Shown: positions 6,978-31,974, counted from the first letter of the stretch. The stretch is 46,156 nucleotides of DNA from Egibacteraceae bacterium (GCA_035540635.1 DATLGH010000110.1:1-46156), one strand, 5' to 3'. The notes: generated from the letters alone by a model not told the origin. Numbers and translations: made by a program.

Positions 6978-7358
6978 ATGTCCACCTCACGCATAGACGA
7001 CGCGCCGGGCGGCTTGCCCCGCAACTACCTGCGGCCCTGCCTGCTCCTCCTCCTCGGTGAGGGAGCCTCGCACGGCTACGAGCTGCTCGAGCAGGTGGGC
7101 GTCCTCGGGCTCGAGAAGGCCGACCCGGGTGGTCTCTACCGCACTCTGCGGGCCATGGAGCAGGAAGAGCTCGTGCGCTCGTGGTGGGAGCACTCCGAGT
7201 CGGGTCCCGCGCGGCGGACGTACGACCTCACGGAGGAGGGGCGTGACTGGCTCCACGCCTGGGCTGGATCCCTGCGTGAGGTGCACCGGCTGCTCGGGCT
7301 CTACCTCGACCGCTACGAGGCCCTGGTCGAGGGCTCGCACTCGACCCTCACGTCATGA
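6978..7358 (+). CDS. PadR-family transcriptional regulator
   Basis: LLLLLGEGASHGYELLEQ...GGLYRTLRAMEQEELV is a typical PadR winged helix. Confidence 0.8.
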   Translation: MSTSRIDDAPGGLPRNYLRPCLLLLLGEGASHGYELLEQVGVLGLEKADPGGLYRTLRAMEQEELVRSWWEHSESGPARRTYDLTEEGRDWLHAWAGSLREVHRLLGLYLDRYEALVEGSHSTLTS

Positions 7359-8128
7359 GGATCGCGCTCGCCGGCAAGGGCGGTGCCGGCAAGACGACGA
7401 CGTCGGCGACGCTGGCACGGCTTCTCGCCCTGGGCGGGACGCCCGTCGTCGCCATCGACGCCGACAGCAACCCCAACCTCTCCTTCGCCCTCGGCGTCCC
7501 GCGGGAGGAGGCGACGCAGGCCAGGGGCCTGCCGACCTCGCTCGTCTCCCGCCGCCTCGGTGGCCCGGGCCTGACCCAGTCGCTCGACACCGCCCTGGAC
7601 CGGCACGCGATCGTCGCGCCCGACGGGGTCCGCGTCCTGCTCATGGGGATGCCCGCGCACGCGGAGGAGGGATGCCTCTGCTCGGCGCACGCGACGGTCA
7701 GCGCGGTCCTCGAGGACCTCGGAACCCGGCAGGAGGTGGTGACGATCATGGACATGGAAGCGTCACCGGAGCACCTGAGCCGGGGCACCGCCCGCCACGT
7801 CGATCAGCTGCTGCTCATCACCGAGCCCTACTACCGGTCGCTGGAGACGGCGCGCAGGATGGCGGCCCTCGCCGCGGAGCTGCCGATCTCCCGCGTGGCC
7901 GTGGTCGGCAACAAGATCCGCTCTGAGGGCGACGCCGAGGCGATCGGCGCCTTCTCGGAGCGACACGGCCTCGAGGTGGCCGGTTACGTCCCGTGGAGCG
8001 ACGCCGTGACGGAGGCCGACGCGCAGGGCGTCCCCCTCGTCGAGCGCGACCCCGACGGTCCCGCTGTCCAGGCCATCGCCGAGCTCGCTCGGGGACTCGT
8101 CGCGTACCAGTTCCAGACGGCGGGTTAG
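7355..8128 (+). CDS. CooC/MinD-family P-loop ATPase (putative Ni-insertion accessory protein), paralog 1
   Basis: Deviant Walker A GKGGAGKTTT, DADSNPNL, and CxC motif GCLCSAHA. ATGA overlap with the PadR gene. Confidence 0.85.
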   Translation: MRIALAGKGGAGKTTTSATLARLLALGGTPVVAIDADSNPNLSFALGVPREEATQARGLPTSLVSRRLGGPGLTQSLDTALDRHAIVAPDGVRVLLMGMPAHAEEGCLCSAHATVSAVLEDLGTRQEVVTIMDMEASPEHLSRGTARHVDQLLLITEPYYRSLETARRMAALAAELPISRVAVVGNKIRSEGDAEAIGAFSERHGLEVAGYVPWSDAVTEADAQGVPLVERDPDGPAVQAIAELARGLVAYQFQTAG

Positions 8129-8189
8129 GGCACCCGCAAACCGGTTAGACTGCGGGCTGCTCCGGGCAGCTCGACCAAAGCGGTTCGCC

Positions 8190-8675
8190 ATGCCGGTTAC
8201 GCCCGTCAGTGAAGAGCGGCTCCGCGTCGTGGTCACGCGCGAGCGCCGCACGCCTCCGCGACTCTACGAGCGCAATCCCGTCGCGGGGCTCATCGTCGAG
8301 AGCATGGCGAAGGCCAGCGACCGCCACGAGCACGCCGTGCGCGATGCCGGGGCCTTCCTGCTGGACCTCCTCCGCGCGAACGAGCCCGAGGCGCCGTGCC
8401 TGTCCCTGCCCGTGGCGATGCGGGTCCTCGCCCGCGACGAGGCTCGGCCGATGGACGATGTGTGCTGCTACCTCTCGCGCACCGCACGCCAGGACGTCCT
8501 GCTCGGCATCGCCGTGCACGCCCTCGTCGGCGGCTGCGTGGGCCCGCGCCGGCGCCGCCAGGAGCACACCGACGCGCGCCGCGAGGCCGTGATCCGGACC
8601 CTCTACCTGCTGCTCCGCATGTTCGAGGCCCAGCAGCAGGTCGACGACCTCCATCACCACTACGCCGCCGACTAG
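8190..8675 (+). CDS. hypothetical protein
   Basis: ORF with a strong GC3 bias. Confidence 0.55.
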   Translation: MPVTPVSEERLRVVVTRERRTPPRLYERNPVAGLIVESMAKASDRHEHAVRDAGAFLLDLLRANEPEAPCLSLPVAMRVLARDEARPMDDVCCYLSRTARQDVLLGIAVHALVGGCVGPRRRRQEHTDARREAVIRTLYLLLRMFEAQQQVDDLHHHYAAD

Positions 8676-8691
8676 CAGCCCGCCGGCAACC

Positions 8692-8723
8692 GAGAAGCCC
8701 CCCGCATCGGCGGGGGGCTTCTC
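8692..8723. terminator. 12-bp perfect inverted repeat (GAGAAGCCCCCC / GGGGGGCTTCTC) between convergent genes, a possible bidirectional terminator
   Basis: Read directly from the sequence. No T-tract follows. Confidence 0.4.
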
Positions 8724-8726
8724 CGT

Positions 8727-9030: not shown

Positions 9031-9273
9031 TCAGCCCTGCACGCCGAGGGTCTGGTCGAGCGCGACGCGGGCCTCCTCCAGGTTGGAGTAGATCTCGCCG
9101 ATGAGCGGCTCGAGCGGCTCGCCGCCCTGCGCGATCGCGCGGACACCGGCGTTGATCGTGCCGACGGTGAAGTTGACGTGGTTCAGGATGACCGCCACAC
9201 GGATGAGGTAGGCGGCGAGCACCGCGACGGTGGCGAACACGAGCACCAGGACGAACCAGCCTGCGAGTGGCAT
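9031..9273 (-). CDS. small single-pass membrane protein, family A
   Basis: Product MPLAGWFVLVLVFATVAVLAAYLIRVAVILNHVNFTVGTINAGVRAIAQG... Confidence 0.6.
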   Translation of the reverse strand: MPLAGWFVLVLVFATVAVLAAYLIRVAVILNHVNFTVGTINAGVRAIAQGGEPLEPLIGEIYSNLEEARVALDQTLGVQG

Positions 9274-9283
9274 GCGATGCTCC

Positions 9284-9529
9284 TTATCCGAGTTGCTGGA
9301 GGGCCGCGCCGTAGCTCTTGACCCCCGCGGCCACCTGTGCGGTCTGGTCGCGGGTCTCTTCGAGCAGGTCGACCCCGTCGAGGGCGGCGATGAGCAGCAC
9401 GCCGTGCTCGAGCACGTCGTCCGCGTACCGCTTGATCTCCACGATCGGTTCCATGAGGTTGTTCAGCAGGGTGATGACGACCGGGATGACGGCCAGGATG
9501 ATGATGCCGAGTACCCACAACCACAACAT
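9284..9529 (-). CDS. small single-pass membrane protein, family B (EI..YAD..LEHGV motif)
   Basis: Strong RBS GGGAGGAG. Product MLWLWVLGIIILAVIPVVITLLNNLMEPIVEIKRYADDVLEHGV... Paralogous to 28386..28634. Confidence 0.6.
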   Translation of the reverse strand: MLWLWVLGIIILAVIPVVITLLNNLMEPIVEIKRYADDVLEHGVLLIAALDGVDLLEETRDQTAQVAAGVKSYGAALQQLG

Positions 9530-9541
9530 TGTCGCTCCTCC

Positions 9542-9808
9542 CTACCGCACGGCTTGGGCGTAGCGCTGCACGTTCGACGCGATGCGGGGCAGCATCTGGT
9601 TGATCTCCCGCAGCCCCTGGTTCACGCGCTGGACGGGCGGGCCGATCGACAGCACCTGCTCCTCCACGGCGCGCACGCCGAAGGCGACGTTGGCGAGGGT
9701 AGCCGAGATCGACTTCAGCCTCGTGGTGATGACGACGAGGTAGATCGCGAGCACGAGGACGAGGAGGACCACCTCGATGAAGGTCAGGACGACGAGCAAA
9801 CCACTCAT
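9542..9808 (-). CDS. small single-pass membrane protein, family A
   Basis: Internal ATG at 9808 with ATGA overlap. Product MSGLLVVLTFIEVVLLVLVLAIYLVVITTRLKSISATLANVAFGVRAVEEQ... Confidence 0.6.
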   Translation of the reverse strand: MSGLLVVLTFIEVVLLVLVLAIYLVVITTRLKSISATLANVAFGVRAVEEQVLSIGPPVQRVNQGLREINQMLPRIASNVQRYAQAVR

Positions 9809-10077
9809 ACTTGACTCCAGAGCTGATCGTGCCGCTTGATCTCTTCCTTCAGCTTGTCCACGGTGTTGGCCGTGCCCTGCAGCTGCCAGGCCGTCGCGGT
9901 GTTCGCCGCGAGCTTCGTCGCCATCTGCCACACGTCGGCGAGACCGCGGTCGATGTCCTGGACGAACCGCAGCAGCAGGGTGAGGAGGGCGATCACGACG
10001 GCGATGACGACGGCGCCGATGCCGAGCGCCACCGACCACATCGCGATCTCCTGCGGTGCGTACGCGAGAACCCTCAT
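9805..10077 (-). CDS. small single-pass membrane protein, family C
   Basis: Product MRVLAYAPQEIAMWSVALGIGAVVIAVVIALL... ATGA overlaps with both neighbouring genes. Confidence 0.6.
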   Translation of the reverse strand: MRVLAYAPQEIAMWSVALGIGAVVIAVVIALLTLLLRFVQDIDRGLADVWQMATKLAANTATAWQLQGTANTVDKLKEEIKRHDQLWSQV

Positions 10078-10361
10078 GCCTGGGCCTCCAGTGCCTCACG
10101 GGCTTCCGTCGCGCGCTCGAGGATCGCCTTCGCGGTGGCGTTGACGGAGTCGATGTCCCACAGGGGCAGCGTCGTCTGCCGACCCTGGTCGAGGCCGACG
10201 AGGATCTCCTGCGCCTGCTTGGCGATCCGGGCCGCCCGCGACAGGATCGCCGAGACGACGATGACGACGACCCAGACGATGGCGAAACCGATTCCGAGGC
10301 CGAGCCACCACCCGAAAAGGTGCGGCTCGCCAGGGGCGTGCTCAGCTAACGTAACGAGCAT
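10074..10361 (-). CDS. small single-pass membrane protein, family C-like
   Basis: RBS AAGGAG. Product ...LFGWWLGLGIGFAIVWVVVIVVSAIL... Confidence 0.55.
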   Translation of the reverse strand: MLVTLAEHAPGEPHLFGWWLGLGIGFAIVWVVVIVVSAILSRAARIAKQAQEILVGLDQGRQTTLPLWDIDSVNATAKAILERATEAREALEAQA

Positions 10362-10411
10362 TCATCACTCCTTACTGTGCCGGAGGTTTGCCCTCCGACT
10401 ACGATCGACGG

Positions 10412-11011
10412 ATGCGGCGCGTACTCATCTTGTTCGGTGTGGCTTTCGTGGCGGGGCTCGTAGCCGTGGTGGCGGCGACGGCGGGCGAGCGGCTCATCAC
10501 CGGACCCGACGTCGCCGGGCCCCCGGACACGTCGACGGCGGGAGACGGCGAGGCCTTCGCATCCTTCACGGACGAGCGAACCGGCTTCTCGCTGTCCTAC
10601 CCGGCGGACTGGCGCAGGGTCCCCGTCGGGAGCCCCGCGGTCCGCCTGCTCGTCGCGCCACCCGACGGCGACGACTCCATCCTCGTCCGGGTCGTCACGC
10701 TCGAGGCGGACGTGACCGGCGACGATCTTCCCGCCGTACGGACCTTCACCGACCAGCTCGTCCGCGAGGGCGAGACGGTGGAGGTCCTCGGCGACCCGAC
10801 ACGCGTCGAGATCGGGGGCCTGCCGGGCATCCAGTACCTCTACACCTTCGAGGACGCGGAGTCCGGCCGGCAGGGTGTGCACTCCCACTACTTCCTGTTC
10901 GACGGGAGCACGATGTACACGATCGTGCTCCAGGCGCTGCCGGTCGAGCGCTTTGCCGAGCTCGCCCCCGCCTTCCGGGTCGTGATCGACAGCTTCGAGG
11001 TGTCGACCTGA
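10412..11011 (+). CDS. hypothetical secreted or membrane-anchored protein
   Basis: N-terminal hydrophobic segment MRRVLILFGVAFVAGLVAVVAA followed by a beta-rich domain. Confidence 0.6.
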   Translation: MRRVLILFGVAFVAGLVAVVAATAGERLITGPDVAGPPDTSTAGDGEAFASFTDERTGFSLSYPADWRRVPVGSPAVRLLVAPPDGDDSILVRVVTLEADVTGDDLPAVRTFTDQLVREGETVEVLGDPTRVEIGGLPGIQYLYTFEDAESGRQGVHSHYFLFDGSTMYTIVLQALPVERFAELAPAFRVVIDSFEVST

Positions 11012-11051
11012 CCCGGGGCGGGGGCGAGCGGGAGGCACGGTCTGTGGTTCG

Positions 11052-11726
11052 CTAGCTGACGCAGCCGGAGCCCGAGAGCAGGCCCAGGACCACGACGATC
11101 GAGTTGCAGTCGATGGAGGCGGCGTGCCCCAGGATGCTCGGGGTGTTCTCGGTGCCAACCACCTCGATGATGGCGCCCGTGTCGCTCTTGATGCCCTGCC
11201 CGAGGGCGATCACTCCGTCGGCGCGGCTGTTGATGTCCGCGACGCCCTGCTGGATCGAGTGGACGACCGGCAGGAGCGTCGAGAACGTCGCGTGGATGCC
11301 GTTCACGGACTGCTGGATGGCTGCCTCGGACGTGCCGATCGCCAGCACGTTCGGGTTGATCTGCCCGGCAGCCATCTGGTTGATCTGCCCGGCGGTGTCG
11401 AGGATCTGGGTGACGGTGCCGTCGATGCTCCCGGCCGACTCGATCACCTGATCGAGCTGTCCGGACAGGGGCGCCGCCGCGTCGCGGATGGCCGCGGCGC
11501 TCGCGTTGATCTCCTGGGTGAGCGCGACGTGCTCGGTGCCGCTGCCGATGTCGGTGACGAGGTTGCGGATCTCGAAGACCCGCTCGTCGATCGACTGCGC
11601 AGCGACGAGCGTGCCGGTGAGCATCAGCACCGCGGCGAGCGCCCAGGCGATGACGATCACCAGCGCCGCACCGGCGAGCCCTTGCTCGTCGCTGTACAGC
11701 CGCGCGTGAAGTCTCTTCGTGGTCAT
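11052..11726 (-). CDS. membrane-anchored alpha-helical repeat protein (paralog trio, member 3)
   Basis: ATG at 11726 with RBS GGAGG. TM helix followed by I/V/N/T/Q-rich repeats and a C-terminal ...SGSGCVS. The ORF-track N-terminal extension is Arg/His-rich and was rejected. Confidence 0.6.
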   Translation of the reverse strand: MTTKRLHARLYSDEQGLAGAALVIVIAWALAAVLMLTGTLVAAQSIDERVFEIRNLVTDIGSGTEHVALTQEINASAAAIRDAAAPLSGQLDQVIESAGSIDGTVTQILDTAGQINQMAAGQINPNVLAIGTSEAAIQQSVNGIHATFSTLLPVVHSIQQGVADINSRADGVIALGQGIKSDTGAIIEVVGTENTPSILGHAASIDCNSIVVVLGLLSGSGCVS

Positions 11727-11734
11727 GGGGCCTC

Positions 11735-12448
11735 CTAGCACGGACCCGGCGTGGGCAGAGCGGTGCAGATGCTCTCCAGGTGCCGGTCGGTCTGCTGGAG
11801 TCGCGGCACGACGGTGCCCGTGTCGCCCTTGACGCCGGTGAGGATCCCGTTGGCGATGTCGACGCGCATCCAGATGTTCTCCGAGGAGAAGCCCGTGCCG
11901 GCGGGCATGCCGGTGGACTGCGTCGCCTCGAGGGAGGCCAGGATTTGGTTGGCGAGCGACAGCACGGACCTCAGCGTGTCCGACGTGCCGGTGAGGCCGC
12001 CACCGGTCCCGACGAGCGAGCCCGACGTGTTGTTGAGCGACGCGAGCGTGCTCGACAGCGACGCGTCGACCTGCTGGAGCGAGCCGCGGATGGACTGCAG
12101 CTCGCTGATGATGGTCTGCGCCTGCCCCGGCACCGGGACGAGCGACTGGTCGATCGCACCGAGCGAGTCGTTCACCGTCGCGATCTGGTCGGGCAGCGGC
12201 TGGACGTGCCCGCCGACACCGGTGAGGTCCTCGTCGGCGGTCGCCAGCGCGTTGTCGATGGACACGAGCGCGTTGGTGATGCCGATGAGGAACGCGATGA
12301 CGACGAGGACGACGAGGAGACCGATGGTCACCCACACCCACAGCCACCGGGTGGTGCCGGCGGTCTCGACCGCTCCGCTCTGCCCCGACGAGACCTGGGA
12401 TGTGCGGTCGGCGGTCCCGGAGTACCTGCTCTCAAGTTTGGTTGCCAT
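11735..12448 (-). CDS. membrane-anchored alpha-helical repeat protein (paralog trio, member 2)
   Basis: RBS GGTAGGAGG. TM helix WLWVWVTIGLLVVLVVIAFLIGI followed by a repeat domain. Ends ...PTPGPC. Confidence 0.65.
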   Translation of the reverse strand: MATKLESRYSGTADRTSQVSSGQSGAVETAGTTRWLWVWVTIGLLVVLVVIAFLIGITNALVSIDNALATADEDLTGVGGHVQPLPDQIATVNDSLGAIDQSLVPVPGQAQTIISELQSIRGSLQQVDASLSSTLASLNNTSGSLVGTGGGLTGTSDTLRSVLSLANQILASLEATQSTGMPAGTGFSSENIWMRVDIANGILTGVKGDTGTVVPRLQQTDRHLESICTALPTPGPC

Positions 12449-12459
12449 GTTCTTGCCTC

Positions 12460-13143
12460 CTACCTGCCGCCGCCGGCGCAGACGCCCTGACCGGCCATCG
12501 GCCCGAGCAAGAGCTTCGTGTCGATACCGCAGGCAGTGAACTCGATGGACTGCGCGGTCGTGAGGACGTTGCCGGTGTCGTTCTTGATGCCCTGGGCCAA
12601 CCCGAGCGTGCCGTCGAGGCTGGTGTTGATCTGCACGACGTCGGCGTCGATGCGCCGGGCGACGTCGAGGATGGCCGCAGCGGTCTGGTTGATGCCGACC
12701 GCGGTCGCGTCGATGTCCTGCGCGGTCCCGCCGATGCCGCCTGCCGCGGCGGTCTGGTTGATCGTCCCGGCGGACGCCAGGATGCCGCCCGCGGTCGAGT
12801 TGATCGAGCTGGCCAGGCCGTCAACTGCCTGGGCGAGCGCGACGATCTCGGCGAGCAGGCCCTCGAGGGGCTGCGCGGTGTTGAGGATCGAGGCCGCGGT
12901 CTCGTTCGTGCGGTTCAGCTGCACGATGGAGTCCGTGGCGGTGTTGATCCCCGTTCCGGTGGCGGCGATGTTGTCGGCCTTGGCGTTGATGCTCCGCGCG
13001 GTCGACAGCGTCCGCCAGAGGAGCCCTGCGGACACCGCGACGGCGCCGAGGACGACCACCAGGACGAGAACACTCGCGATCTCGACCTGCCCGTGCTGGG
13101 CATGCCGCCGTGCTTTACCTGGTCCCTGTCGGGTCATGCCCAT
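12460..13143 (-). CDS. membrane-anchored alpha-helical repeat protein (paralog trio, member 1)
   Basis: ATG at 13143 (MGMTRQ...) with RBS GGAGG. TM helix followed by N-x-T-rich repeats. Ends ...GQGVCAGGGR. Confidence 0.6.
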   Translation of the reverse strand: MGMTRQGPGKARRHAQHGQVEIASVLVLVVVLGAVAVSAGLLWRTLSTARSINAKADNIAATGTGINTATDSIVQLNRTNETAASILNTAQPLEGLLAEIVALAQAVDGLASSINSTAGGILASAGTINQTAAAGGIGGTAQDIDATAVGINQTAAAILDVARRIDADVVQINTSLDGTLGLAQGIKNDTGNVLTTAQSIEFTACGIDTKLLLGPMAGQGVCAGGGR

Positions 13144-14453: not shown

Positions 14454-14732
14454 ATGTGTCTCGGCATTCCCGGCAAGATCGTGGAGCTGGTCGACCCCGA
14501 CAACGGGATCGCCAAGGCGGACGTGAACGGGGTGCGCCGCAACGTCTCCATCCAGCTCATCCCCAAGGAAGAAGGCGGCGTCGAGGTCGGTGACTGGGTC
14601 CTGATCCACGTCGGCTTCGCGATGTCGAAGATCGACGAGCAGGAGGCCGAGGACACCTTCCGGTTCCTCGAGCAGCTCGGTGCCATGTACGAGGAGGAGC
14701 TCTCCGACCTCGCCAAGAGCGACATCGAGTAG
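14454..14732 (+). CDS. hypC: hydrogenase maturation factor HypC/HupF
   Basis: Starts MCLGIPGKIVE (the canonical MC(L)xIP N-terminus) after RBS GGAGGA. Carries ...VGDWVLIHVGFAM. Confidence 0.85.
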   Translation: MCLGIPGKIVELVDPDNGIAKADVNGVRRNVSIQLIPKEEGGVEVGDWVLIHVGFAMSKIDEQEAEDTFRFLEQLGAMYEEELSDLAKSDIE

Positions 14733-14742
14733 GAGGCTCACT

Positions 14743-15369
14743 GTGAGCCAGCAGTCGACGGCAATGGTGCGGTCGGCGATCGATGACGCGAGAGCCCGCC
14801 GGCGGGCACCCGGCGAGGCGGTGGCGGCCGAAGCCGAGCGCGTTGCGCGAGCCTGCCACGCGATGGCGGCGCGCTTCCACCAGGGCGGCAAGCTCGTCGG
14901 CTTCGGCAACGGCGGCACGACCTCGGACGCCCAGCACGTGTCGGTGGAGTTCGTGCACCCCGTCATCGTGGGCAAGCGCGCCCTGCCGGGGATCTCGCTC
15001 ACCAGCGACGTCGCGACGATCACCGGCGTGGCCAACGACGAGGGCTTCACCGAGGTCTTCGCCCACCAGCTGCGCTACCTCGCCAACCCCGAGGACATCG
15101 CGCTGGGGGTCTCCTCCGACGGGCGGTGCGCGAACGTCCTGCGGGGCCTCCAGGTCGCCAAGGAGCGCGGGCTGCTCACCGTCGCGCTCGTCGGCGGTGA
15201 CGGCGGGCCGATCGCCGCGGATCCCGCCGTCGACCACGTGCTCCTCGCCAGGTCCCCCGATCCCCGTGTCGTGAAGGAGGTCCACGTGACCCTCTACCAC
15301 ATCCTGTGGGAGCTGGTGCACGTGTTCTTCGAGCAGCCGGGCGTGCTGAGCCCCGAGGTCCTGCGGTGA
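14743..15369 (+). CDS. SIS-domain protein (GmhA/DiaA-like), paralog 1
   Basis: GTG start with RBS GGAGG. Contains the GFGNGGTTSDAQH motif. Confidence 0.75.
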   Translation: MSQQSTAMVRSAIDDARARRRAPGEAVAAEAERVARACHAMAARFHQGGKLVGFGNGGTTSDAQHVSVEFVHPVIVGKRALPGISLTSDVATITGVANDEGFTEVFAHQLRYLANPEDIALGVSSDGRCANVLRGLQVAKERGLLTVALVGGDGGPIAADPAVDHVLLARSPDPRVVKEVHVTLYHILWELVHVFFEQPGVLSPEVLR

Positions 15370-15614
15370 GCACCGATCCGATCCCTCTCGGCACGCAGCT
15401 CCCGCCGCCCGTCCCCGAGTGCTACGGAGACGTCTGCATCACGTGCTCCGACGAGGCGGTGGAGGTGACGGTCCTCGAGATGCTCGACGACGGGCTCGCC
15501 CGGGTGGACACCGGTGAGAGCGTCGAGGTGGTGAGCGTCATGCTCGTCGACGCCGAGGTCGGCGCTCGCATCCTCGTGCACGCCAAAGAAGCCATCGTCC
15601 GTCTGGAGGACTGA
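15366..15614 (+). CDS. HypC/HupF-family-like protein lacking the canonical N-terminal Cys (CITC instead)
   Basis: GTGA overlap with the upstream gene. Segment ARVDTGESVEVVSVMLVDAEVGARILVHAKEAI resembles the HypC beta-barrel C-terminal region. Confidence 0.45.
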   Translation: MSTDPIPLGTQLPPPVPECYGDVCITCSDEAVEVTVLEMLDDGLARVDTGESVEVVSVMLVDAEVGARILVHAKEAIVRLED

Positions 15615-15615
15615 G

Positions 15616-16305
15616 GTGGACGCCGACGACCAGGTCGGGGGCATCGAGGCCCTCTACCCCTTCCTCTACGCCGACGCGTCCAACGTCGACGCCGTGCTCG
15701 CCGAGGTGCGCCGCTCCACGGTGGCCAAGGCCGCCGAGATCGTGGCGCTGCGCGAGGAGGTCTTCGACCTCCACGCCGAGCGGCTCGTCGCCTGCGCCGA
15801 GGCGATGGCCGCCTCCTTTGCCGCCGGCGGCAGGCTCTTCGCGTTCGGCAACGGCGGTTCGAGCACGGACGCCCAGGACGTCGTCAACACCTTCCTCCAC
15901 CCCGGCCTCCCCACCGGACCGGCCGTCCGTCCGCTGCCGGCGCTGTCGCTCACCGGCGACGTGGCCGTGCTGACGGCCCTGTCCAACGACGTCGGGTTCG
16001 ACGTCGTCTACGCTCGGCAGATCGCCGCCTTCTCCCGCGCCGGCGACATCGCGTTCGGGCTGTCGACGAGCGGCGGGTCGGCGAACGTGCTGCGGGCGTT
16101 CGACGAGGCCTCGCGACGCGGCCTCGTCACCGTGGGGCTCGCCGGCTACGACGGGGGCCAGATGGCTGACGCCGACACCATCGACTACCTGTTCGTTGTG
16201 CCGTCCTCCTCGGTGCACCGCATCCAGGAGGCCCAGACCACGCTGTACCACGTCCTGTGGGAACTCACCCAGACGGCCCTGGAAGGGCGAGGAGCGAAGC
16301 TATGA
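15616..16305 (+). CDS. SIS-domain protein, paralog 2
   Basis: Contains FAFGNGGSSTDAQD. Confidence 0.75.
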   Translation: MDADDQVGGIEALYPFLYADASNVDAVLAEVRRSTVAKAAEIVALREEVFDLHAERLVACAEAMAASFAAGGRLFAFGNGGSSTDAQDVVNTFLHPGLPTGPAVRPLPALSLTGDVAVLTALSNDVGFDVVYARQIAAFSRAGDIAFGLSTSGGSANVLRAFDEASRRGLVTVGLAGYDGGQMADADTIDYLFVVPSSSVHRIQEAQTTLYHVLWELTQTALEGRGAKL

Positions 16306-17426
16306 AGTTCGTCGACGAGTACCGCGACGCCGAGATCGCCAAGCGCCTGGCGAAGGAGATCGCCGAGCTCGCGGGGTCTCGGGAGTACAAGTTCATGGAG
16401 GTGTGCGGGGGTCACACGCACACCATCTACCGCCACGGCCTCGAGGACTACCTGCCCGAGAACGTGCACCTCATCCACGGCCCCGGCTGTCCCGTCTGCG
16501 TGATCCCGATGGGGCGGGTCGACGACGCGATCGCCATCGCCGAGCAGGACGACGTCATCATGACCTCGTTCGGCGACATGATGCGCGTGCCCGGCGGACG
16601 CGGCTCGTTCTTCGACTCGAACGCCGCCGGGGCGGACATCCGCATGGTGTACTCCCCGCTCGACGCGCTGAAGATCGCGCGCAACAACCGTGACAAGCGC
16701 GTCGTGTTCATGGCGATCGGCTTCGAGACCACGGCCCCCTCGACCGCGGCGACCGTGCTGCGTGCGGCCGCCGAGGGCCTCGACAACTTCTCCATCTTCT
16801 GCAACCACGTGACGATCATCCCGGCGATCAAGGCGATCCTCGACTCACCGGACCTGCGCCTCGACGGCTTCATCGGACCCGGCCACGTGTCGACGGTGAT
16901 CGGCTGCCGCCCCTACGAGTTCATTCCCCGGGACTACGGCAAGCCGATCGTCTGCTCAGGCTTCGAGCCGCTCGACATCCTCCAGGGCGTCTACATGATC
17001 CTCAAGCAGATCCAGGAGGGCCGCTCGGAGGTGGAGAACCAGTACAGCCGCGTGGTGCCCTGGGACGGCAACCGCCGTGCCCTCGAGGTCATCGGCCGCA
17101 CGATGGAGCTCCGCCCGTACTTCGAGTGGCGCGGGCTCGGCTTCATCTCCCAGTCGGCGATGCAGGTCCGCGAGGAGTACGCCGCCTTCGACGCCGAGCG
17201 CGTCTTCGACGTCCCCGGGGTCCGCGTGGCCGACCCGAAGGCCTGCCAGTGCGGTGAGGTCCTGAAGGGTGTGCTGAGGCCGTGGGAGTGCAAGGTGTTC
17301 GGCACCGCGTGCACACCGGAGACCCCGATCGGCACCTGCATGGTGTCGAGCGAGGGCGCCTGCGCCGCGTACTACAACTTCGGGCGCTTTACGCGTGAGC
17401 GCGTCCGGGAGGCGACCGTCACATGA
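16302..17426 (+). CDS. hypD: hydrogenase maturation factor HypD
   Basis: MKFVDEYRD...EVCGGHTH...GPGCPVCV carries the HypD CGxH and GPGCPVC motifs. Confidence 0.9.
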   Translation: MKFVDEYRDAEIAKRLAKEIAELAGSREYKFMEVCGGHTHTIYRHGLEDYLPENVHLIHGPGCPVCVIPMGRVDDAIAIAEQDDVIMTSFGDMMRVPGGRGSFFDSNAAGADIRMVYSPLDALKIARNNRDKRVVFMAIGFETTAPSTAATVLRAAAEGLDNFSIFCNHVTIIPAIKAILDSPDLRLDGFIGPGHVSTVIGCRPYEFIPRDYGKPIVCSGFEPLDILQGVYMILKQIQEGRSEVENQYSRVVPWDGNRRALEVIGRTMELRPYFEWRGLGFISQSAMQVREEYAAFDAERVFDVPGVRVADPKACQCGEVLKGVLRPWECKVFGTACTPETPIGTCMVSSEGACAAYYNFGRFTRERVREATVT

Positions 17427-21353: not shown

Positions 21354-21692
21354 CTACAGGCGGATGAGGACGCGAATGCCGTCGGCTGTCGGCTGCCGCT
21401 CGATCCAGGCGTGGATGGGATCCACGTCACCGAACGCCTCGGCGATCGCGCTGCCCTCGGGAAGTGGGCCCCGCACCCGCACGAAGCGCTCGTTGAAGGC
21501 CTGGACCTCGTCCTGGCCCGGGACGACGCTCTCGAGCCAGCGGACCGGAAAGGGGTGATCGGTGAGCCCCGAAGGCGGGCGGTCGCAGGTGAACGAACGG
21601 AACGGCAGTTCGGCGATCTGGGCGGGGCGGCGCCCGTCAGGCTCCGCCACCCGGCCGCACTGCGGACATTCCCCCGGATCGGTCATCGCCAT
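21354..21692 (-). CDS. hypothetical protein with an N-terminal CPQC motif
   Basis: ORF with a GC3 bias, located in the maturation operon. Confidence 0.45.
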   Translation of the reverse strand: MAMTDPGECPQCGRVAEPDGRRPAQIAELPFRSFTCDRPPSGLTDHPFPVRWLESVVPGQDEVQAFNERFVRVRGPLPEGSAIAEAFGDVDPIHAWIERQPTADGIRVLIRL

Positions 21693-23057: not shown

Positions 23058-23156
23058 GCTAGCACGATGCCGACGCCGGGCACGATGCCGCTTGGTGTTT
23101 ACCCACGGTCGGACCTATGGCAGGCTCGACGGAAGAATCGAAAGCAGAGGTGTGTG

Positions 23157-24239
23157 ATGGGGCTCTTCGACAAGATCGCAGGCAAGCCGGACAAAGAGGA
23201 AAGCAACGTCGAGCAGGATGCTGCCCGGCAGCTCGAGGCCGCCCGCCGGGACACCGCGCAGCAGCTCGGGGGAAGCCGCACCGGCGGTGGGTTCTCCGGT
23301 GCACCGCCCATGTCGCTCGGCTCCCGCCCGCCGACGGCTTCCGCTCCGGCGGCAACACCCGAGCCGGCCCCGCCGGCGACACCGCCGCCGGGCTTCCCGA
23401 CGCCGCCCGCGGCGAACCCCTTCGCCACGGGGGGCGCCTCCGCGACGCCGCAGGAGGAGCGCCGGAGCATCACCGACATGGCCCTGCAGGACCTCCAGCG
23501 CCAGCGTCAGTCGGCGCCGAGCCAGACCCCCTACATCAAGACCGCCCGCCTTCCCGAGAACGAGCTCGAGCGGCGCCGCCCGCCGGCGCCGGGGGAGTCG
23601 CTTCCCGGCGTTCCCCCTCCCCACATCCCCTCGGAGGATCTCCGCGATCAGGCGCTGCGCGAGATCCTCGAGCGCAAGGAACGACTTGACCGCGAGTACC
23701 GGGCACGCCAGGCGCAGCAGCACGGCGTGAGCGGTGGCGAAGAAGGTTCCGCGCCCGGCGCGCCGGCGGCCCTCGCAGGTCCTGCGGCTCCGACCGGTCC
23801 GAAGACCAAGCTCCACGGGCTCGCGCGCAAGAAGCTCAGCCGGCCCGCGCCGGGCGCGGTGAGCGGCACAGCGCCGTCGCAACCCCCGGCCCCGGCCGCG
23901 GCACTGCAGCAGGCCGCGGCCCCACCACCGCAGGAGACCGCGGCGCCGCAGCCGCGACGCGCGTTGAAGAAGCTCGTCAAGCCCGCCGCAGTTCCCGAGG
24001 CGGCCCCCGCCGCAGCGCCGACCCCGGCACCGCCCGCGGCCCCGGCCCCTGCCGCGAACGGAGCCCCGTCGATCGCGGCTGCGCTCACGGGGGTGAAGGG
24101 CGTCGGGCCGAAGATCCTGCGCGGGCTCGAGGAGCACTTCGACTCGGTGCAGGAGATCAAGGAAGCCGACCTCGCCGCGCTGACCGCGGTGAACGGCATC
24201 GGCCCAGCGCTCGCTGCGCGCATCCAGTCCTCGCTGTAG
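23157..24239 (+). CDS. Pro/Ala-rich protein with C-terminal tandem helix-hairpin-helix motifs
   Basis: Starts MGLFDKIAGK. C-terminal LTGVKGVGPKILRGL...LTAVNGIGPALAARI. Confidence 0.6.
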   Translation: MGLFDKIAGKPDKEESNVEQDAARQLEAARRDTAQQLGGSRTGGGFSGAPPMSLGSRPPTASAPAATPEPAPPATPPPGFPTPPAANPFATGGASATPQEERRSITDMALQDLQRQRQSAPSQTPYIKTARLPENELERRRPPAPGESLPGVPPPHIPSEDLRDQALREILERKERLDREYRARQAQQHGVSGGEEGSAPGAPAALAGPAAPTGPKTKLHGLARKKLSRPAPGAVSGTAPSQPPAPAAALQQAAAPPPQETAAPQPRRALKKLVKPAAVPEAAPAAAPTPAPPAAPAPAANGAPSIAAALTGVKGVGPKILRGLEEHFDSVQEIKEADLAALTAVNGIGPALAARIQSSL

Positions 24240-24346
24240 GAGGCAGGCAGTACCCTGAAATCCGGATCGCCGAAGCACTCGCGGAGGCGACGGTCAACAG
24301 TGCAGGGTGTGGCGGTCCCCGCGGCCGCCATGGAGGTACTGACTCC

Positions 24347-27006: not shown

Positions 27007-27891
27007 TCACTCCTCGTCGGGCAGGGCCGCCGCGCGCGCCGCCTCCTCCGGCACCGGGATCGCCGAGCCACCGGTGCCGAGCGGCTCGCGTCGCAGGCGC
27101 AGGGTGTCCCAGTGACCGAACTCGTTCTCCGGCTGCCAGCGCATCATCCAGCAGCGGTCGCCCCAGCGCTCGTGGAGCTCCTGCTGCGCGGGCTCGCAGA
27201 GGAACTTGGAGCACGCCTGCTCGTCGCGCAGGACGGCGAGCGCGTAGTGGTCGGACCAGCCCGAGAAGCCGGTGACGCTGCGCAGCACGCCGCCGTCAGC
27301 CGTGAGGCGCCGCCCGACCCGACGGATGTCCCACCAGGCCCACAGGGACTGCCCCAGGTCGTCCGCCTCGATCCGGACGACGATCGCACCGGCCCCGCTC
27401 ACCGCTCTGCGGTGCCGGCGTGCGGCGGGCGACGTGTCGTAGGTGGGGGCGCCCTCAGGGCCGGCGGAGGCCTTCAGCACGGGCAGCGCGTCGAGCACGG
27501 CGTCGAGGGCCCGCTGCTCCTCAGGGGTGCGGGCACGCGCTTTCCTGCCCTGGCCCGTGGGCCCGAGGGTCGCGTCGCTCCAGCGCCCCACCTCCTCGGT
27601 CGTCGGCCTCCACCGCATGAGCCAGAAGCTCTCGAGCCACTTGCCGAACTCCCACATGATGTCCTCGTGCGCACCCGAGCGCATGAACTCGAACATCTTG
27701 TCCCGCGTCTCCCAGACGGTGATCGTCCAGAACTCGCGGGGGCCGGCGATGATGCTCGCGAAGCGGACGCAGCCGGGGGTGACCGCGAGCTGACGGCGGA
27801 TCCGGCGGGAGGAGAGGAACATCTGGGGGAACCGCCACACGCCCCGGAGGCGGGACCGGGTGGTGACGGCGAACTTCACCGAGGAGGTCAT
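27007..27891 (-). CDS. hypothetical protein with an internally duplicated domain
   Basis: Two similar segments (...MRWRPTTE..GRWSD and ...MRWQPENEFGHWD). Located downstream of the Cys-form DUF1059 gene. Confidence 0.5.
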   Translation of the reverse strand: MTSSVKFAVTTRSRLRGVWRFPQMFLSSRRIRRQLAVTPGCVRFASIIAGPREFWTITVWETRDKMFEFMRSGAHEDIMWEFGKWLESFWLMRWRPTTEEVGRWSDATLGPTGQGRKARARTPEEQRALDAVLDALPVLKASAGPEGAPTYDTSPAARRHRRAVSGAGAIVVRIEADDLGQSLWAWWDIRRVGRRLTADGGVLRSVTGFSGWSDHYALAVLRDEQACSKFLCEPAQQELHERWGDRCWMMRWQPENEFGHWDTLRLRREPLGTGGSAIPVPEEAARAAALPDEE

Positions 27892-28116: not shown

Positions 28117-28368
28117 CTACGTCCCCGCGTCGACCTTCGCTGCGAAGTCCTCCAGGGCGTCGGCGACGGCGGTGAGGTTGCCGCTCACGTCGGCCAGCGC
28201 CGGTCCGGCAGGCCCCGTGCGGTGCGCGACCGCGCGCACGCCGAAGGTGACCTTGCCGAGCGTGTCGTTGACGTGGCTGAGGATGACCACGATCCAGATG
28301 AGGTAGAAGGCCAGCGCGGCGACGAGGAGGGCGACGAGGCCGAGCGTGACGATCGCCGCTGCGGACAT
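28117..28368 (-). CDS. small single-pass membrane protein, family A
   Basis: ATG at 28368. Product MSAAAIVTLGLVALLVAALAFYLIWIVVILSHVNDTLGKVTFGVRAVAHR... Confidence 0.6.
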   Translation of the reverse strand: MSAAAIVTLGLVALLVAALAFYLIWIVVILSHVNDTLGKVTFGVRAVAHRTGPAGPALADVSGNLTAVADALEDFAAKVDAGT

Positions 28369-28385: not shown

Positions 28386-28634
28386 TCAGGCGAGACGGCG
28401 GAGCGCGCTCACGTAGCGGGCCGCGTTGTCGGTGACGCGACGAGCCACGTCGCGGGTGTCGGCCAGGGCGGGCAGGGGGTCGAGGGTACCGGTCAGCCGG
28501 ACGCCGTGCTCGAGGATCTCGTCGGCGTACTGGCGGATCTCCAACGCCTGGGCGATGACCCGGTTGGCGAGGAGGACGACGAGCGGGATGACCGCGAGCA
28601 GCCCGACGGCGTTCGCGACCCACCACAGCGTCAC
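28386..28634 (-). CDS. small single-pass membrane protein, family B
   Basis: GTG at 28634 with RBS GGAGG. Product VTLWWVANAVGLLAVIPLVVLLANRVIAQALEIRQYADEILEHGV... Confidence 0.55.
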   Translation of the reverse strand: MTLWWVANAVGLLAVIPLVVLLANRVIAQALEIRQYADEILEHGVRLTGTLDPLPALADTRDVARRVTDNAARYVSALRRLA

Positions 28635-28802: not shown

Positions 28803-29576
28803 ATGAAGCTCGGAATCGTCGGGAAGGGCGGGGTAGGCAAGACGACCGTGTCCGCCCTCATCTCGCAGGCCTACGCCGCGCGCGGCGCCCGCGTCGTTGC
28901 CATCGACACCGACTCCAACCCCAACCTCGGCATGTCGCTCGGCATGGACTGGGACGAGATGGAGGCCGTGCCGGTCATGCCCCGTGCCCTGATCGTCGGC
29001 AGCGAGGGAGACCTGACGGCCCAGGAGGTGATCGAGAAGTACGGTCGCCCCACACCGGCCGGCCCGGTCCTCCTCTCGGCCATCCGCGTCACCCAGGCGG
29101 GCTCCGGCTGCACCTGCTCCGGCCACGCGACGGTGCGCAACTTCCTCGGCGAGGTGCTCGCGGAGGAGGCCGACGTGACGCTCATCGACATGGAGGCCGG
29201 CCTCGAGCACCTGAGCCGCTCCGGCGGCACCCTCGCGTACGCCGACGTCCTGCTCGTCGTGATGGAGCCGAGCCGCAAGTCGGTCATCACCGCTGCGCGC
29301 ACCCTCGCCCTCGCCGAGGAGCTCGGCATCCCCAGGGTGTACGGCCTCGGCAACAAGGCCCGCATGCCCGAGGACGCCGAGTTCTTCGCCGAGTTGGCTG
29401 CGGAGTACAACGTCCCCCTCGCGGGGGTCATCCCCCTCGATCCCGCCGTGGCCGACGCCGACCGGGCGGGGTCCGCGGTGACCGCCACACCCCCCGAGGC
29501 GGTGCGTGCGGCGCTCGACGCCGTCATCGACCTCATCGAGGGCTCCTCAGTGAGCGACCAGGCCCCCGTGCGCTGA
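28803..29576 (+). CDS. CooC/MinD-family P-loop ATPase, paralog 2
   Basis: Walker A GKGGVGKTT, DTDSNPNL, and CxC motif GCTCSGHA. Confidence 0.85.
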   Translation: MKLGIVGKGGVGKTTVSALISQAYAARGARVVAIDTDSNPNLGMSLGMDWDEMEAVPVMPRALIVGSEGDLTAQEVIEKYGRPTPAGPVLLSAIRVTQAGSGCTCSGHATVRNFLGEVLAEEADVTLIDMEAGLEHLSRSGGTLAYADVLLVVMEPSRKSVITAARTLALAEELGIPRVYGLGNKARMPEDAEFFAELAAEYNVPLAGVIPLDPAVADADRAGSAVTATPPEAVRAALDAVIDLIEGSSVSDQAPVR

Positions 29577-29654: not shown

Positions 29655-30101
29655 ATGACCCGCCTCACCGTCTCCAAGCTCGCTGAACGCGTCGGCAGCA
29701 CGCCGTCCGCGCTGCGCTACTACGAGCGCATCGGCCTGCTGCCCGCCCCCCGGCGGAGCGCCGGGGGCTACCGGCTCTACGACGAGACCGCCGAGGAGCG
29801 CGTGCGGTTCATCAAACGGGCCCAGCGCTTCGGCCTGCGCCTCGACGAGATCAGTGACCTCCTGTCCATCCGCGAGCGCGGGCAGTGTCCGTGCGGGCAC
29901 ACCCGCGACCTCCTCGCGGGGCGCCTCGCGGAGATCGACGAGGAGATGGCCGGCCTCGCCCGGCTGCGCCAGGACATCGAGCGCATGGTCGAGGACCTGC
30001 CGTCCAGCGAGGACCGCGCCGACTGGGCCTGCGGCGGCGAGCTCGTCACGCTGACCCGCCGCCCCCCCGATCACCACGCCAACACCAACCTTGAAGCCTG
30101 A
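29655..30101 (+). CDS. MerR-family transcriptional regulator
   Basis: Contains LTVSKLAERVGSTPSALRYYERIGLL and candidate Cys metal ligands (CPCGH, WACGG). Confidence 0.85.
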   Translation: MTRLTVSKLAERVGSTPSALRYYERIGLLPAPRRSAGGYRLYDETAEERVRFIKRAQRFGLRLDEISDLLSIRERGQCPCGHTRDLLAGRLAEIDEEMAGLARLRQDIERMVEDLPSSEDRADWACGGELVTLTRRPPDHHANTNLEA

Positions 30102-30126
30102 TGAGAGACGAGAAAGGACACCGACC

Positions 30127-30423
30127 ATGAGCACCACCGACACCGGCTGCCAGTGTGGCTGCAGCACGATGACCGTCGTCACGGAGGCGGCCGAGCCCTG
30201 CGGCTGCGGCTGCGAGTGCTGCGCCGCCGTCCCACAGAGCGCCCAGGAGGAGATCACCCAGCTGCGTCAGCTTCGCGAGAACGTCGAGCAGCGCCTGCAG
30301 ACGCTCCAGGCGAGCGGCGAAGGCGCCGCCGCGGCATGCGGCTGCGGCTGCGGCAGCGCGAGCAGCTCCGGCCCGGCCGAACCGTGCGCCTGCGGCTGCG
30401 ACTGCTGCCAGGTCGCTTCCTGA
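30127..30423 (+). CDS. Cys-rich metallothionein-like protein (CxCxC clusters flanking a coiled segment)
   Basis: Product MSTTDTGCQCGCSTM...CGCGCECCAAV...CGCGCGS...CACGCDCCQVAS. Confidence 0.55.
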   Translation: MSTTDTGCQCGCSTMTVVTEAAEPCGCGCECCAAVPQSAQEEITQLRQLRENVEQRLQTLQASGEGAAAACGCGCGSASSSGPAEPCACGCDCCQVAS

Positions 30424-30481
30424 CCCGGCCGGCTCGGCCGGCAGCCGTCGGAGGACCGACCTCCCCGCCCTGCTGCCTCAG

Positions 30482-31219
30482 CTAGGACGCGGGGAGGAGG
30501 TCCTCGGCGAGCGCCGCGAGCGCCGCCACGGCCGGCGCGTCGGGGTCGAGGTCAAGGGGCGCGATCCCCTTGCGGTCGGCCTCGACGATCACCGGGTCGT
30601 CGGGCACACCCACGACCTCCACCCCGGGCGGAAAGGCCGCACGGATCCGCTCGAGGTCGTCCTCGCCCCGGATGCGGTTGGCGAGGACCACCGTGCGCAT
30701 CGCCGCGCGCTCCCCCGCGAGCTCGGCGGCACGGGCGCCGACCTCGAGCGACTTCGACATCGCCTCGACGACGATGACGACCACGTCGACGGCGTTCTCC
30801 GCCAGGCGCGTGAGCGTGCCGATCCCCGCCTCGCAGTCCGCGATGACCACCGATGCGCCGAACTCCCCGGACCCGAGCAACTGCTCGGGTGAGAGCCCGC
30901 ATCAGGGACAGCCCGGCTCCGGGTTCTCGATACGCGAGACGACGGCGAGCCGCACGTTGTCCGGCGCGTCGGAGCCGAAGCGGTCCATGAGCTCGGCCCA
31001 GCCAGGGGCGTGCTCCTCCTCGCCTTCGGCGAGCGCCTGACGCATCGCGTCGAGCCGCTCGGTCTCCGTGTCACCGATGCCCAGCGAGATGCCGAGGTTC
31101 GGGTTGCTGTCGCAGTCGAGCGCGACCACCCCGCGGCCCTGGCGGCCGATGGTGCGCGCCAGCACGGCCGACGTCGTCGTCTTGCCAGAGCCGCCCTTGC
31201 CGACGACCGCGATCTTCAT
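30482..31219 (-). CDS. CooC/MinD-family ATPase interrupted by one in-frame TGA (30902-30904) inside its CxC metal motif (candidate selenoprotein; otherwise a nonsense pseudogene)
   Basis: The N-terminal part (31219->30905) reads MKIAVVGKGGSGKTTTSAV...ENPEPGCP, then TGA, then CGLSPEQLLGSGEFGASVVIADCEAG... (30901->30482) in the same frame. The total is 239 aa, the normal family length. The TGA lies in the motif aligned to GCLCS and GCTCS of the paralogs. Confidence 0.5.
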
Positions 31220-31974
31220 GCGCCTGCCTCCTCAGCACGGAGCCGTTCCACCAGCAAGTCTATCGCCTTGACCGCCGGTGAGTCCGGGGCCTCCTCGATC
31301 GGGGGACGGCCTTTCCGGTCCGCTTCGGCGAGCTCCTCGTCGAGCGGCACGGCACCGACGACCTCAAGGCCCGTGCGGTCCTGCACCCGCTCGACGTCAC
31401 CGTCCTCGCAGACCTTGTTCACGACCGCCACGACCCGCGGCGCGTCCTCGGCCAGCGCGAGGCGCGCCAGGCGCTTCGCGCTGAGGATCGACTTCGCCAT
31501 CGGCTCCACCACCACGAGGATGGTGCGGGCGTAGCGACCCCAGCCGAGAAACGGCTGGCGGGTGCCCCCGGGGAGGTCGCCGACGATGTTCCACTTGTCG
31601 TCGGGCAGCTGGGCGGTGATCTGGCGGAACGCGAACTGCGAGCGAATGAGCCCGCGCCCGGAGTCGCGGATCTTGCCGAACTGCAGGACGCGCACACCGT
31701 CGGGCCCGCGCACGGCGTAGCGCTCGACGGCGTCGGCGGCCGTGAGCTCCCCGGCCAGCACGTACCGGGGGCCGGCCTCCGCCGGGTTCTCGACCACCGC
31801 CTCGTCGGGGATCCCGGCGTCGGTGGTCTCGACGCCGAGCGAGTAGGCCAGGCCGGGAAGCGGGTCGGAGTCGACGACGAGCACCGGCTCCCCACGTCGG
31901 GCGAGGAGGCGGGCGAACGTCCCCGCGATCGCGGACTTGCCGGCTCCGCCCTTGCCTACGAATGCAACGCGCAT
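31216..31974 (-). CDS. CooC/MinD-family P-loop ATPase, paralog 3 (no CxC motif)
   Basis: Walker A GKGGAGKS and DSDPLPGL. ATGA overlap with the downstream paralog. Confidence 0.8.
   Translation of the reverse strand: MRVAFVGKGGAGKSAIAGTFARLLARRGEPVLVVDSDPLPGLAYSLGVETTDAGIPDEAVVENPAEAGPRYVLAGELTAADAVERYAVRGPDGVRVLQFGKIRDSGRGLIRSQFAFRQITAQLPDDKWNIVGDLPGGTRQPFLGWGRYARTILVVVEPMAKSILSAKRLARLALAEDAPRVVAVVNKVCEDGDVERVQDRTGLEVVGAVPLDEELAEADRKGRPPIEEAPDSPAVKAIDLLVERLRAEEAGA

Follow-up and report, generated by a model that had tools for sequence, protein, structure and literature searches.

The 46,156-nucleotide (nt) stretch of Egibacteraceae DNA considered here (the window) comes from a metagenome-assembled genome (MAG) of the Actinomycetota, class Nitriliruptoria, in which it is one entire contig with a GC content of ~71%, and carries a [NiFe]-hydrogenase island in which four genes encode what are, by sequence, CooC-type ATPases of the MinD/ParA superfamily and not proteins of the HypB type. 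One of these, CooC3, is very probably a selenoprotein, with selenocysteine (Sec) inserted at a UGA codon (30904..30902, minus strand) that is followed 12–13 nt downstream by a selenocysteine insertion sequence (SECIS). A second, predicted Sec subfamily is found in other genomes, where the paralog CooC2 carries Sec in a U-T-C motif. Together the four paralogs make up a conserved module that recurs in the group-1h-type [NiFe]-hydrogenase islands of Actinomycetota from soil and desert. The full explanation, a four-paralog CooC-type module with Sec in CooC3 (and in CooC2 elsewhere) that delivers metal to the hydrogenase, is one to which we give somewhat better than an even chance. Coordinates are positions in the window (protein accessions HVM00971 to HVM01018) unless a related locus is named, and the four genes are as follows.

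7355..8128, plus strand: CooC1 paralog (HVM00971.1), with the motif G-C107-L-C109-S; its start overlaps the PadR stop
28803..29576, plus strand: CooC2 paralog (HVM01003.1), with G-C103-T-C105-S, Cys-type in the window
30482..31219, minus strand: CooC3 paralog (HVM01007.1), 245 amino acids (aa), with C104-P-U106-C107
31216..31974, minus strand: CooC4 paralog (HVM01008.1), with no metal motif; there is a 4-nt overlap between its stop and the CooC3 start

The original prediction, made from the window's sequence alone, had described four CooC/MinD-type ATPase genes in a hydrogenase island among hypC, hypD, hypE, hypF and hupD, and they are indeed present there; the translations also confirm a CxC in the genes at 7355..8128 and 28803..29576 and none in that at 31216..31974. 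The motif of 30482..31219 had been read, with a query, as CxU?C, and this too was borne out, the interrupting stop being a TGA that is conserved in orthologs. In alignment the TGA falls on Cys114 of Carboxydothermus hydrogenoformans CooC1, the second Cys of the CxC, and at this site 119 of 120 full-length homologs (58–73% identity) read C-P-C-C and the remaining one C-M-C-C. A one-off sequencing or assembly error was rejected, since the identical TGA stands on near-identical DNA in JGI sample 3300072952 and SRA run SRR8438990, and the CooC3 N-terminal fragment belongs to a 90%-identity cluster of 15 members, each of them 105 aa in length. The public annotation of HVM01007.1, an 'AAA family ATPase', likewise covers the first 105 aa only and ends at the UGA, with the C-terminal 139 codons left separate or unannotated.

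A degenerate DNA pattern for C-P-TGA-C-G-L-S-P-E-Q-L, which finds only TGA forms with conserved flanking residues, matched 19 genomes, each representing a species, and also 22 metagenome contigs. Among the former are the isolate Pseudonocardia nigra DSM 104088 and MAGs of Acidimicrobiales/Acidimicrobiia, Pseudonocardiaceae and Mycobacteriales. Every match was a CooC3 ortholog with its frame intact, having ~105 codons before the TGA and 135–149 after it, and together they comprise 34 distinct proteins at 50–90% identity (median 66%). The ratio of nonsynonymous to synonymous substitution rates (dN/dS) 3′ of the TGA is 0.09–0.40 in 11 pairs, and the downstream part is therefore translated and selected. 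In a neighbor-joining tree, admittedly a crude one, TGA and Cys forms are interleaved with ~14 state changes, and some TGA forms are ~88% identical to their Cys neighbors; interleaving of this sort is usual for Sec/Cys families. Genome-wide reassignment of UGA is ruled out by stop-codon usage, as TGA terminates 20 of the 27 Pfam-supported genes in the window. No other recoded TGA was found in the window, where coding potential on both sides of a TGA occurred elsewhere only at one normal gene junction.

The hairpin that follows the UGA in the window is located as follows.

30872..30889, minus strand: SECIS-like hairpin CCCGAGC-AGUU-GCUCGGG, whose start lies 12 nt past the UGA and whose apical loop contains GU

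It caps a longer helix (~30844..30910, minus strand; −39.2 kcal/mol, z = −3.8). Across the 34 TGA-form sequences the hairpin core GAGCAGUUGCUC is invariant and its six core pairs are always formed, with a stem of 6–7 base pairs (bp), an AGUU loop and a start 12–13 nt past the UGA. This geometry, a 12–13 nt spacer and a 6–7 bp stem with G-U in a small apical loop, corresponds to that of the Escherichia coli fdhF SECIS. Synonymous columns 27, 30, 31, 33 and 36, which comprise the third base of each of the Glu, Gln and two Leu codons plus the first base of the rare Leu codon UUG, are frozen in 33–34 of the 34 sequences; at synonymous sites to either side, two to four different bases occur. The search pattern had left three of the frozen hairpin positions free, and the last four lie outside the pattern. 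Stem pair 24–37 is C-G in 20 sequences, U-G in eight and U-A in four, with no mismatches, and shifting the 3′ stem partners cuts pairing from 95% to 11–43%. The idea that the hairpin is a by-product of the PEQLLG peptide was largely rejected on the strength of the varied codons in Cys-type CooC3 orthologs (n = 4), which at the same place use GAA/GAG, CAA/CAG, UUG/CUC/CUG and CUG/CUC; a hairpin in one of them, locus L047, is the remaining caveat.

In two unrelated MAGs, ARAGORN places a tRNA-Sec gene within ~1.5 kb of the UGA-bearing CooC3 (L014 2892..2983, plus strand; L020 3812..3903, minus strand, equivalent to L048 9555..9650). GC-rich false positives were considered as a source of these calls and rejected, because Rfam model RF01852 (gathering score 47) confirms both, L014 with 65.7 bits and L020 with 69. 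None of selA, selB and selD was seen in the fetched relative stretches. Adjoining the tRNA-Sec, between two PadR genes, lies an orphan of 172–177 aa that matches only the C-terminal quarter of the NiFe large subunit (L020 2657..3187 and L048 8401..8919, both minus strand).

All of this bears on the alternative in which the CooC3 TGA is a true stop, marking a pseudogene, a gene split into a 105-aa P-loop fragment and a separately started 132-aa one, or a site of selenium-free near-cognate readthrough. A single base change would turn TGC into TGA, gene callers and NCBI do annotate two open reading frames (ORFs) at CooC3, and the hairpin sits in a conserved peptide whose codons are naturally near-palindromic, with one Cys-type ortholog folding a hairpin too. 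Nevertheless, such a stop is highly improbable: the TGA holds the identical codon in all 34 orthologs, down to 50% identity, with the frame always open and purifying selection downstream, and the synonymous sites of the hairpin are frozen in TGA forms only. Moreover, the seven codons from the TGA to the putative restart spell out the conserved CGLSPEQ, and the tree, in which the two forms interleave as they do in established Sec/Cys families, argues for Sec, as do the adjacent tRNA-Sec genes.

In the Sec form of CooC2, seen in three orthologs (L020 6720..7481, minus strand; L052 10001..10756, plus strand; L053 5555..6310, plus strand), the TGA replaces the first Cys of the CxC to give G-U-T-C-S; L020, for example, reads QAGAG-TGA-T-C-S-S-H. 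The stop codon was confirmed as TGA in these three genes only, and in each the frame runs on to full length (251–253 aa). A hairpin again follows, 13 nt downstream (AUGCUGC-CGUGC-GCAGCAU), and L053 shows a compensatory change in it (GCUAC...GUAGC). When a 104-aa N-terminal fragment of CooC2 was used as a query, 115 of the 120 clusters listed were 102–110-aa fragments ending right before that Cys. Genomes also mix the two forms, with a Cys-type CooC2 and a Sec-type CooC3 in the window, a Sec-type CooC2 in L053 (Egibacteraceae as well) and Sec in both proteins in L052; the CooC1 orthologs seen were Cys-type in 13 of 13 cases. At the CooC3 position of L053 (4764..5483, plus strand), the protein has a hybrid motif, C-L-C-C-G-S-H-A-T, between the CooC1/2 and CooC3 types.

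The four window proteins share a deviant Walker A motif, GKGGxGK[ST], with the signature lysine (GKGGAGKT, GKGGVGKT, GKGGSGKT and GKGGAGKS), and all are matched by the Pfam families CbiA, ParA and Fer4_NifH. With CooC2, CooC3 and CooC4 as phmmer queries against the PDB, the top match was in each case 3KJE, the CooC1 of C. hydrogenoformans (E = 1.5e-21, 1e-13 and 2.8e-11, respectively); the CooC1 paralog at 7355 was placed by joint alignment instead. There, C107-L-C109, C103-T-C105 and C104-P-stop-C107 fall on C112-Y-C114 of the C. hydrogenoformans protein, whose CxC binds Ni/Zn at the dimer interface. CooC4 has L-I-R at this site in the alignment, and its sole Cys (residue 189) is unrelated to the metal motif. 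Identity is 30–39% among the window paralogs and 24–29% between them and C. hydrogenoformans CooC1. When the closest Cys-type ortholog of CooC3 was modeled with AlphaFold2 (predicted local distance difference test score, pLDDT, 91.4), the best Foldseek match of the model was again 3KJE (TM score 0.72, E = 9.7e-13), followed closely by MinD and FleN, with nitrogenase Fe proteins and BchL also among the fold matches. The top NCBIfam scores went to MinD/BcsQ, far under cutoff, and the NUBPL/ParA Fe-S carrier, MrpORP and CfbC models also scored below theirs.

Some of these matches favor a different function, in which the module handles iron–sulfur (Fe-S) clusters and not nickel. The Cys/Sec loop would then bridge a cluster at the dimer interface, much like Mrp/NBP35/ApbC or NifH-like proteins, and the proteins would either insert it into the small subunit or act as an ATP-driven reductase that (re)activates O2-exposed enzyme. 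The sub-cutoff matches to Fer4_NifH, the NUBPL/ParA Fe-S carrier, MrpORP and CfbC point this way, as do the nitrogenase Fe proteins and BchL among the fold matches, the NifU-like genes in related islands, and the CPCC of CooC3, which provides more thiolates than a plain CxC. However, the best match in both sequence and fold is CooC1, with the CxC aligned residue for residue with its Ni/Zn site, and the ATPase motif differs from the CxxC of Mrp/NBP35 and from the two separated Cys of NifH. In addition, hypA and hypB are missing exactly at the usual place of nickel-insertion genes, and an Fe-S role is accordingly judged unlikely.

CooC4 forms a separate conserved family with the invariant motifs FGKxR and GDLPGGTRQxFxGWG. 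It is translationally coupled to CooC3: of 28 lineages, 17 share the 4-nt stop/start overlap and 26 have a gap of 15 nt or less. The coupling is consistent with the proposal that this tandem pair (31974->30482) forms a heteromer, in which one subunit would carry the metal site and the other would lack it. One Mycobacteriales MAG (L019) has two CooC4-CooC3 pairs, at 1276..2768 and 6048..7504, the second of them divergent (39–44% identity to the window proteins).

When the window proteins were compared by tblastn with all related loci, CooC4 followed by CooC3 was present in every locus long enough for both. The usual companions are CooC2, a unit of a small protein (s6511), PadR and CooC1, an ABM-like protein, two small membrane proteins, and HypF or HypCDE; further ones are hydrogenase subunits, HupD, a TPR protein and a BirA-like protein. 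This synteny with hydrogenase and hyp genes is kept across Acidimicrobiia, Pseudonocardiaceae, Mycobacteriales and Egibacteraceae. The original prediction had tentatively cast the ATPases as Ni-insertion NTPases for the two large subunits, but a correspondence of that kind fails: in the stretch covered, L044 and L046 have four paralogs beside a single pair of small and large subunits, and as relatives with a single visible hydrogenase keep all four, paralog number does not track large-subunit number. Genes of an Opp/Nik-type ATP-binding cassette (ABC) transporter (permeases, oligo_HPY ATPases and SBP_bac_5) flank the module in L045 (1..3331), L046 (17217..20735) and L047 (5446..9206), and ABC ATPases occur in L010 (~4592) and L015 (~6607); adjoining transporters of the Opp/Nik type would be compatible with nickel uptake.

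It is also conceivable that the ATPases have nothing to do with the hydrogenase and are carbon monoxide dehydrogenase (CODH) accessory proteins, or MinD/ParA positioning proteins that lie in the island by chance. The JGI product name, 'CO dehydrogenase maturation factor', and the MinD/BcsQ models with the highest NCBIfam scores, far below cutoff, would fit such a view. Against this, no CODH genes were found in the window or in ~50 related loci, the hydrogenase/hyp synteny holds in all four taxa, and the conserved CxC metal motif is absent from positioning ATPases. An unconnected role is therefore most improbable, and membership of a CODH cluster, which together with hypAB just outside the window would have undone the original prediction, was not seen.

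That prediction had further noted that hypA and hypB are not visible in the 46 kb, and this was confirmed. No called ORF of the window matches HypA (PF01155) or HypB (PF02492) in Pfam. A six-frame scan for Walker A motifs picked out just five genes, the four CooC-like ones and one for a MoxR-type AAA protein, and no HypB, and paired CxxC...CxxC motifs occur, among real genes in the window, only in HypF, with no HypA. The interval 23058..24346 was considered as a hiding place for hypA/B and rejected, since its product is rich in Pro and Ala and shows an apparent helix-hairpin-helix (HhH) motif; neither of the two stretches that lack a clear gene call codes for HypA or HypB. Among relatives, neither gene was found in any of seven Pfam-annotated contexts (loci of 13.6–20.8 kb), and a motif scan of 402 kb of relative loci, like that of the window, found neither the GxxGxGKT and GNLVCP-type motifs of HypB nor the MHE...CxxC-x(n)-CxxC zinc finger of HypA.

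Canonical hypA and hypB might of course lie elsewhere and insert the nickel, with the module as an auxiliary for nickel storage or hand-over under nickel scarcity or O2 stress, or for isoenzyme specificity. Coverage around the module is only 13.6–46 kb per genome, and hyp genes are spread over several operons even within the window. On the other hand, hypC, D, E, F and hupD are in the island and hypA/B consistently are not, in the seven contexts and the motif-scanned 402 kb alike, and typical group 1h/5 hydrogenase clusters do include hypA/hypB. The auxiliary role is thus possible but rather doubtful.

The preferred reading of the module, delivery of metal to the hydrogenase, could work as follows. 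The ATPases would form ATP-dependent dimers, possibly a CooC1 homodimer, a CooC2 homodimer and a CooC3/CooC4 heterodimer, which would bind a metal, most likely nickel, at the Cys/Sec loop and, as ATP is hydrolyzed, hand it over to the large subunit of the hydrogenase. In this way the module might do the job of HypB and HypA, much as Thermococcales use a MinD-type protein, 'mmHypB', in place of the HypB GTPase. As a ligand in these aerobes, Sec would be softer and more acidic than Cys and would better withstand oxidation. The evidence supports a probable metal-handling role in hydrogenase maturation, and nickel delivery is its most economical reading because of the CooC1-type site, the lack of hypAB in the loci and the Thermococcales precedent; for nickel itself the chances appear about even. 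The most specific version, a HypA/HypB-independent maturation of the O2-insensitive, high-affinity group 1h-type hydrogenases through four CooC-type ATPases in which the Sec of CooC2 and CooC3 directly ligates the delivered nickel, can be offered only tentatively.

Several points weigh against metal delivery by a Sec-containing module. None of the four ATPases reaches a curated NCBIfam cutoff, and nickel binding, ATPase activity and action on the hydrogenase are each inferred from sequence. The CxC/CPCC loop would be just as well suited to bridging an Fe-S cluster, and the absence of hypA/hypB covers the window and the fetched loci only. As to Sec, covariation in the SECIS stem is slight, with one pair changing on both sides, possibly as a single event within one clade; the stem is near-invariant and covariation statistics are therefore weak, so that the contrast with the Cys-type codons is the stronger argument. 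That contrast draws on only four Cys-type DNA controls, with a similar hairpin in L047. Finally, linkage to tRNA-Sec was seen in only two of the scanned loci, and within the window selA, selB, selD and selC were not found, nor was any tRNA gene.

The remaining features of the island come from gene calling by codon usage followed by Pfam annotation over the whole window.

1..738, minus strand: N-terminal part of a group-1h-type [NiFe]-hydrogenase large subunit (Pfam); the gene continues past the window edge
773..1996, minus strand: group-1h-type [NiFe]-hydrogenase small subunit (Pfam), partner of the large subunit at 1..738
3849..5570, plus strand: second group-1h-type large subunit (Pfam), with an RACGWCGSIH motif and C-terminal DPCMHCGTH
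6511..6924, plus strand: 137-aa protein (s6511) upstream of PadR-CooC1, a conserved unit with both
6978..7358, plus strand: PadR regulator of the conserved unit upstream of CooC1, its stop overlapping the CooC1 start
14454..18628, plus strand: operon of hypC, SIS_2, hypC-like, SIS_2, hypD and hypE (Pfam)
14454..14732, plus strand: HypC (Pfam)
15366..15614, plus strand: HypC-like protein (Pfam)
16302..17426, plus strand: HypD (Pfam)
17423..18628, plus strand: HypE (Pfam)
19078..21430, minus strand: MoxR-type AAA ATPase and CoxE-like von Willebrand factor A (VWA) protein, between hypE and hupD
21718..22212, minus strand: HupD/HycI maturation endopeptidase (Pfam)
27007..27891, minus strand: ABM-like protein of 294 aa that co-travels with the four-paralog module
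28117..28368 and 28386..28634, minus strand: two small membrane proteins that co-travel with the module
29655..30101, plus strand: MerR-family regulator downstream of CooC2, with the Cys motifs GQCPCGH and, at the C-terminus, WACGG
32060..34315, plus strand: HypF carbamoyltransferase (Pfam), divergent from CooC4
34387..34797: second PadR gene, following HypF

Both the small subunit at 773..1996 (E = 1.5e-108) and the large subunit at 3849..5570 (E = 2.8e-114) have as their best match 5AA5 of Ralstonia eutropha, the 'actinobacterial-type' group 1h hydrogenase. The large subunit at 3849..5570 keeps both Ni-binding motifs, and because the His that closes DPCMHCGTH is also its final residue, there is no C-terminal extension that HupD could cleave. 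It also has no adjoining small-subunit gene; the possibility that 2177..3637 hides a small subunit interrupted by a further in-frame stop was rejected, as the translation does not resemble a small subunit and has no Pfam match. Between CooC1 and the hyp operon, 9031..13059 holds five small membrane ORFs, a PsbP-like protein and three coiled-coil proteins and is syntenic with islands L045, L049, L005 and L042. The pairing of a MoxR-type AAA ATPase with a CoxE-like VWA protein is known from Mo-Cu CODH maturation (CoxD/CoxE). At ~23150..24239 (plus strand), codon statistics did not call the stretch that encodes the Pro/Ala-rich, low-complexity protein, whose apparent HhH is C-terminal; short tandem repeats of 18–24 nt occur at 23888..24056. 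The MerR protein is likely a metal sensor; its GQCPCGH recalls the CxC of the ATPases, and it co-occurs in L007, L016 and L039 too.

Within the literature searched, both Sec forms appear to be unreported. A 2026 review of 119 prokaryotic selenoprotein families has no CooC, MinD, ParA, CbiA, NifH-like, ArsA-like or P-loop entry, and the Pfam identifiers of CooC-like ATPases are absent from its table (PMC13188914). No CooC-like selenoprotein family is given in the deep-Sep paper and its supplements, in the main text of BSepDB or in the top-20 list of a 2016 survey, and nothing relevant was found on the loss of hypAB, on Sec in CooC/MinD proteins or on CooC-like genes within the hydrogenase clusters of actinobacteria. 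The two subfamilies would thus be apparently new and would fall among the P-loop metallochaperone ATPases, a class without described Sec. Public annotation truncates both, CooC3 as the 105-aa HVM01007.1 and the CooC2 form as more than 100 fragment clusters.

The position of the Sec adds to the interest of these proteins, as it lies at a metal-ligand site and not in a redox CxxU, and the Cys and Sec forms provide a natural series for the effect of a selenolate on nickel affinity and release. Group-1h-type hydrogenases are thought to drive the scavenging of atmospheric H2 in soil. With a four-ATPase module in place of visible hypAB, the nickel supply of group-1h-type enzymes could be tested in cultured P. 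nigra DSM 104088. If the proposal is true, this would be the first selenium-dependent metallochaperone, and selenium availability would be tied to atmospheric H2 oxidation.

Among known systems, the closest is CooC/CooC1, the Ni-insertion ATPase of Ni,Fe-CODH (3KJE; AcsF is a relative), with which the window proteins share the MinD/ParA fold, the deviant Walker A, a length of ~250 aa and the position of the CxC. They differ from it in being only 24–29% identical, in having a group-1h-type hydrogenase as partner with no CODH or acetyl-CoA synthase (ACS) genes nearby, and in forming a set of four specialized paralogs instead of one; the motif is CPCC/CPUC in one of them and has been lost from another, and a ligand Cys is exchanged for Sec. 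With HypB and HypA they would share NTP-dependent nickel delivery to the large subunit before HupD cleavage, as well as a place among hypCDEF and hupD; HypB, however, is a G3E GTPase (CobW/HypB/UreG) and HypA a Zn-finger protein, and neither is in the window or the related loci.

A closer functional parallel may be the mmHypB of Thermococcales (3VX3), a Mrp/MinD-type ATPase that takes over the HypB role in [NiFe]-hydrogenase maturation and that is a weak match of CooC2 (E = 2e-4). Unlike the module, mmHypB is a single archaeal protein that acts with HypA, it has no CooC-aligned CxC or Sec, and its match is much weaker than that of CooC1. Lastly, selenoproteins with a SECIS inside the ORF, such as E. 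coli FdhF, and the [NiFeSe]-hydrogenases offer the same short-range hairpin with G-U in the loop and the same interchange of Cys and Sec, and in [NiFeSe]-hydrogenases Sec is likewise a metal ligand in a nickel system. The difference is that the Sec here would reside in an accessory ATPase, whereas the window's large subunits have DPCxxC, with Cys and not Sec.

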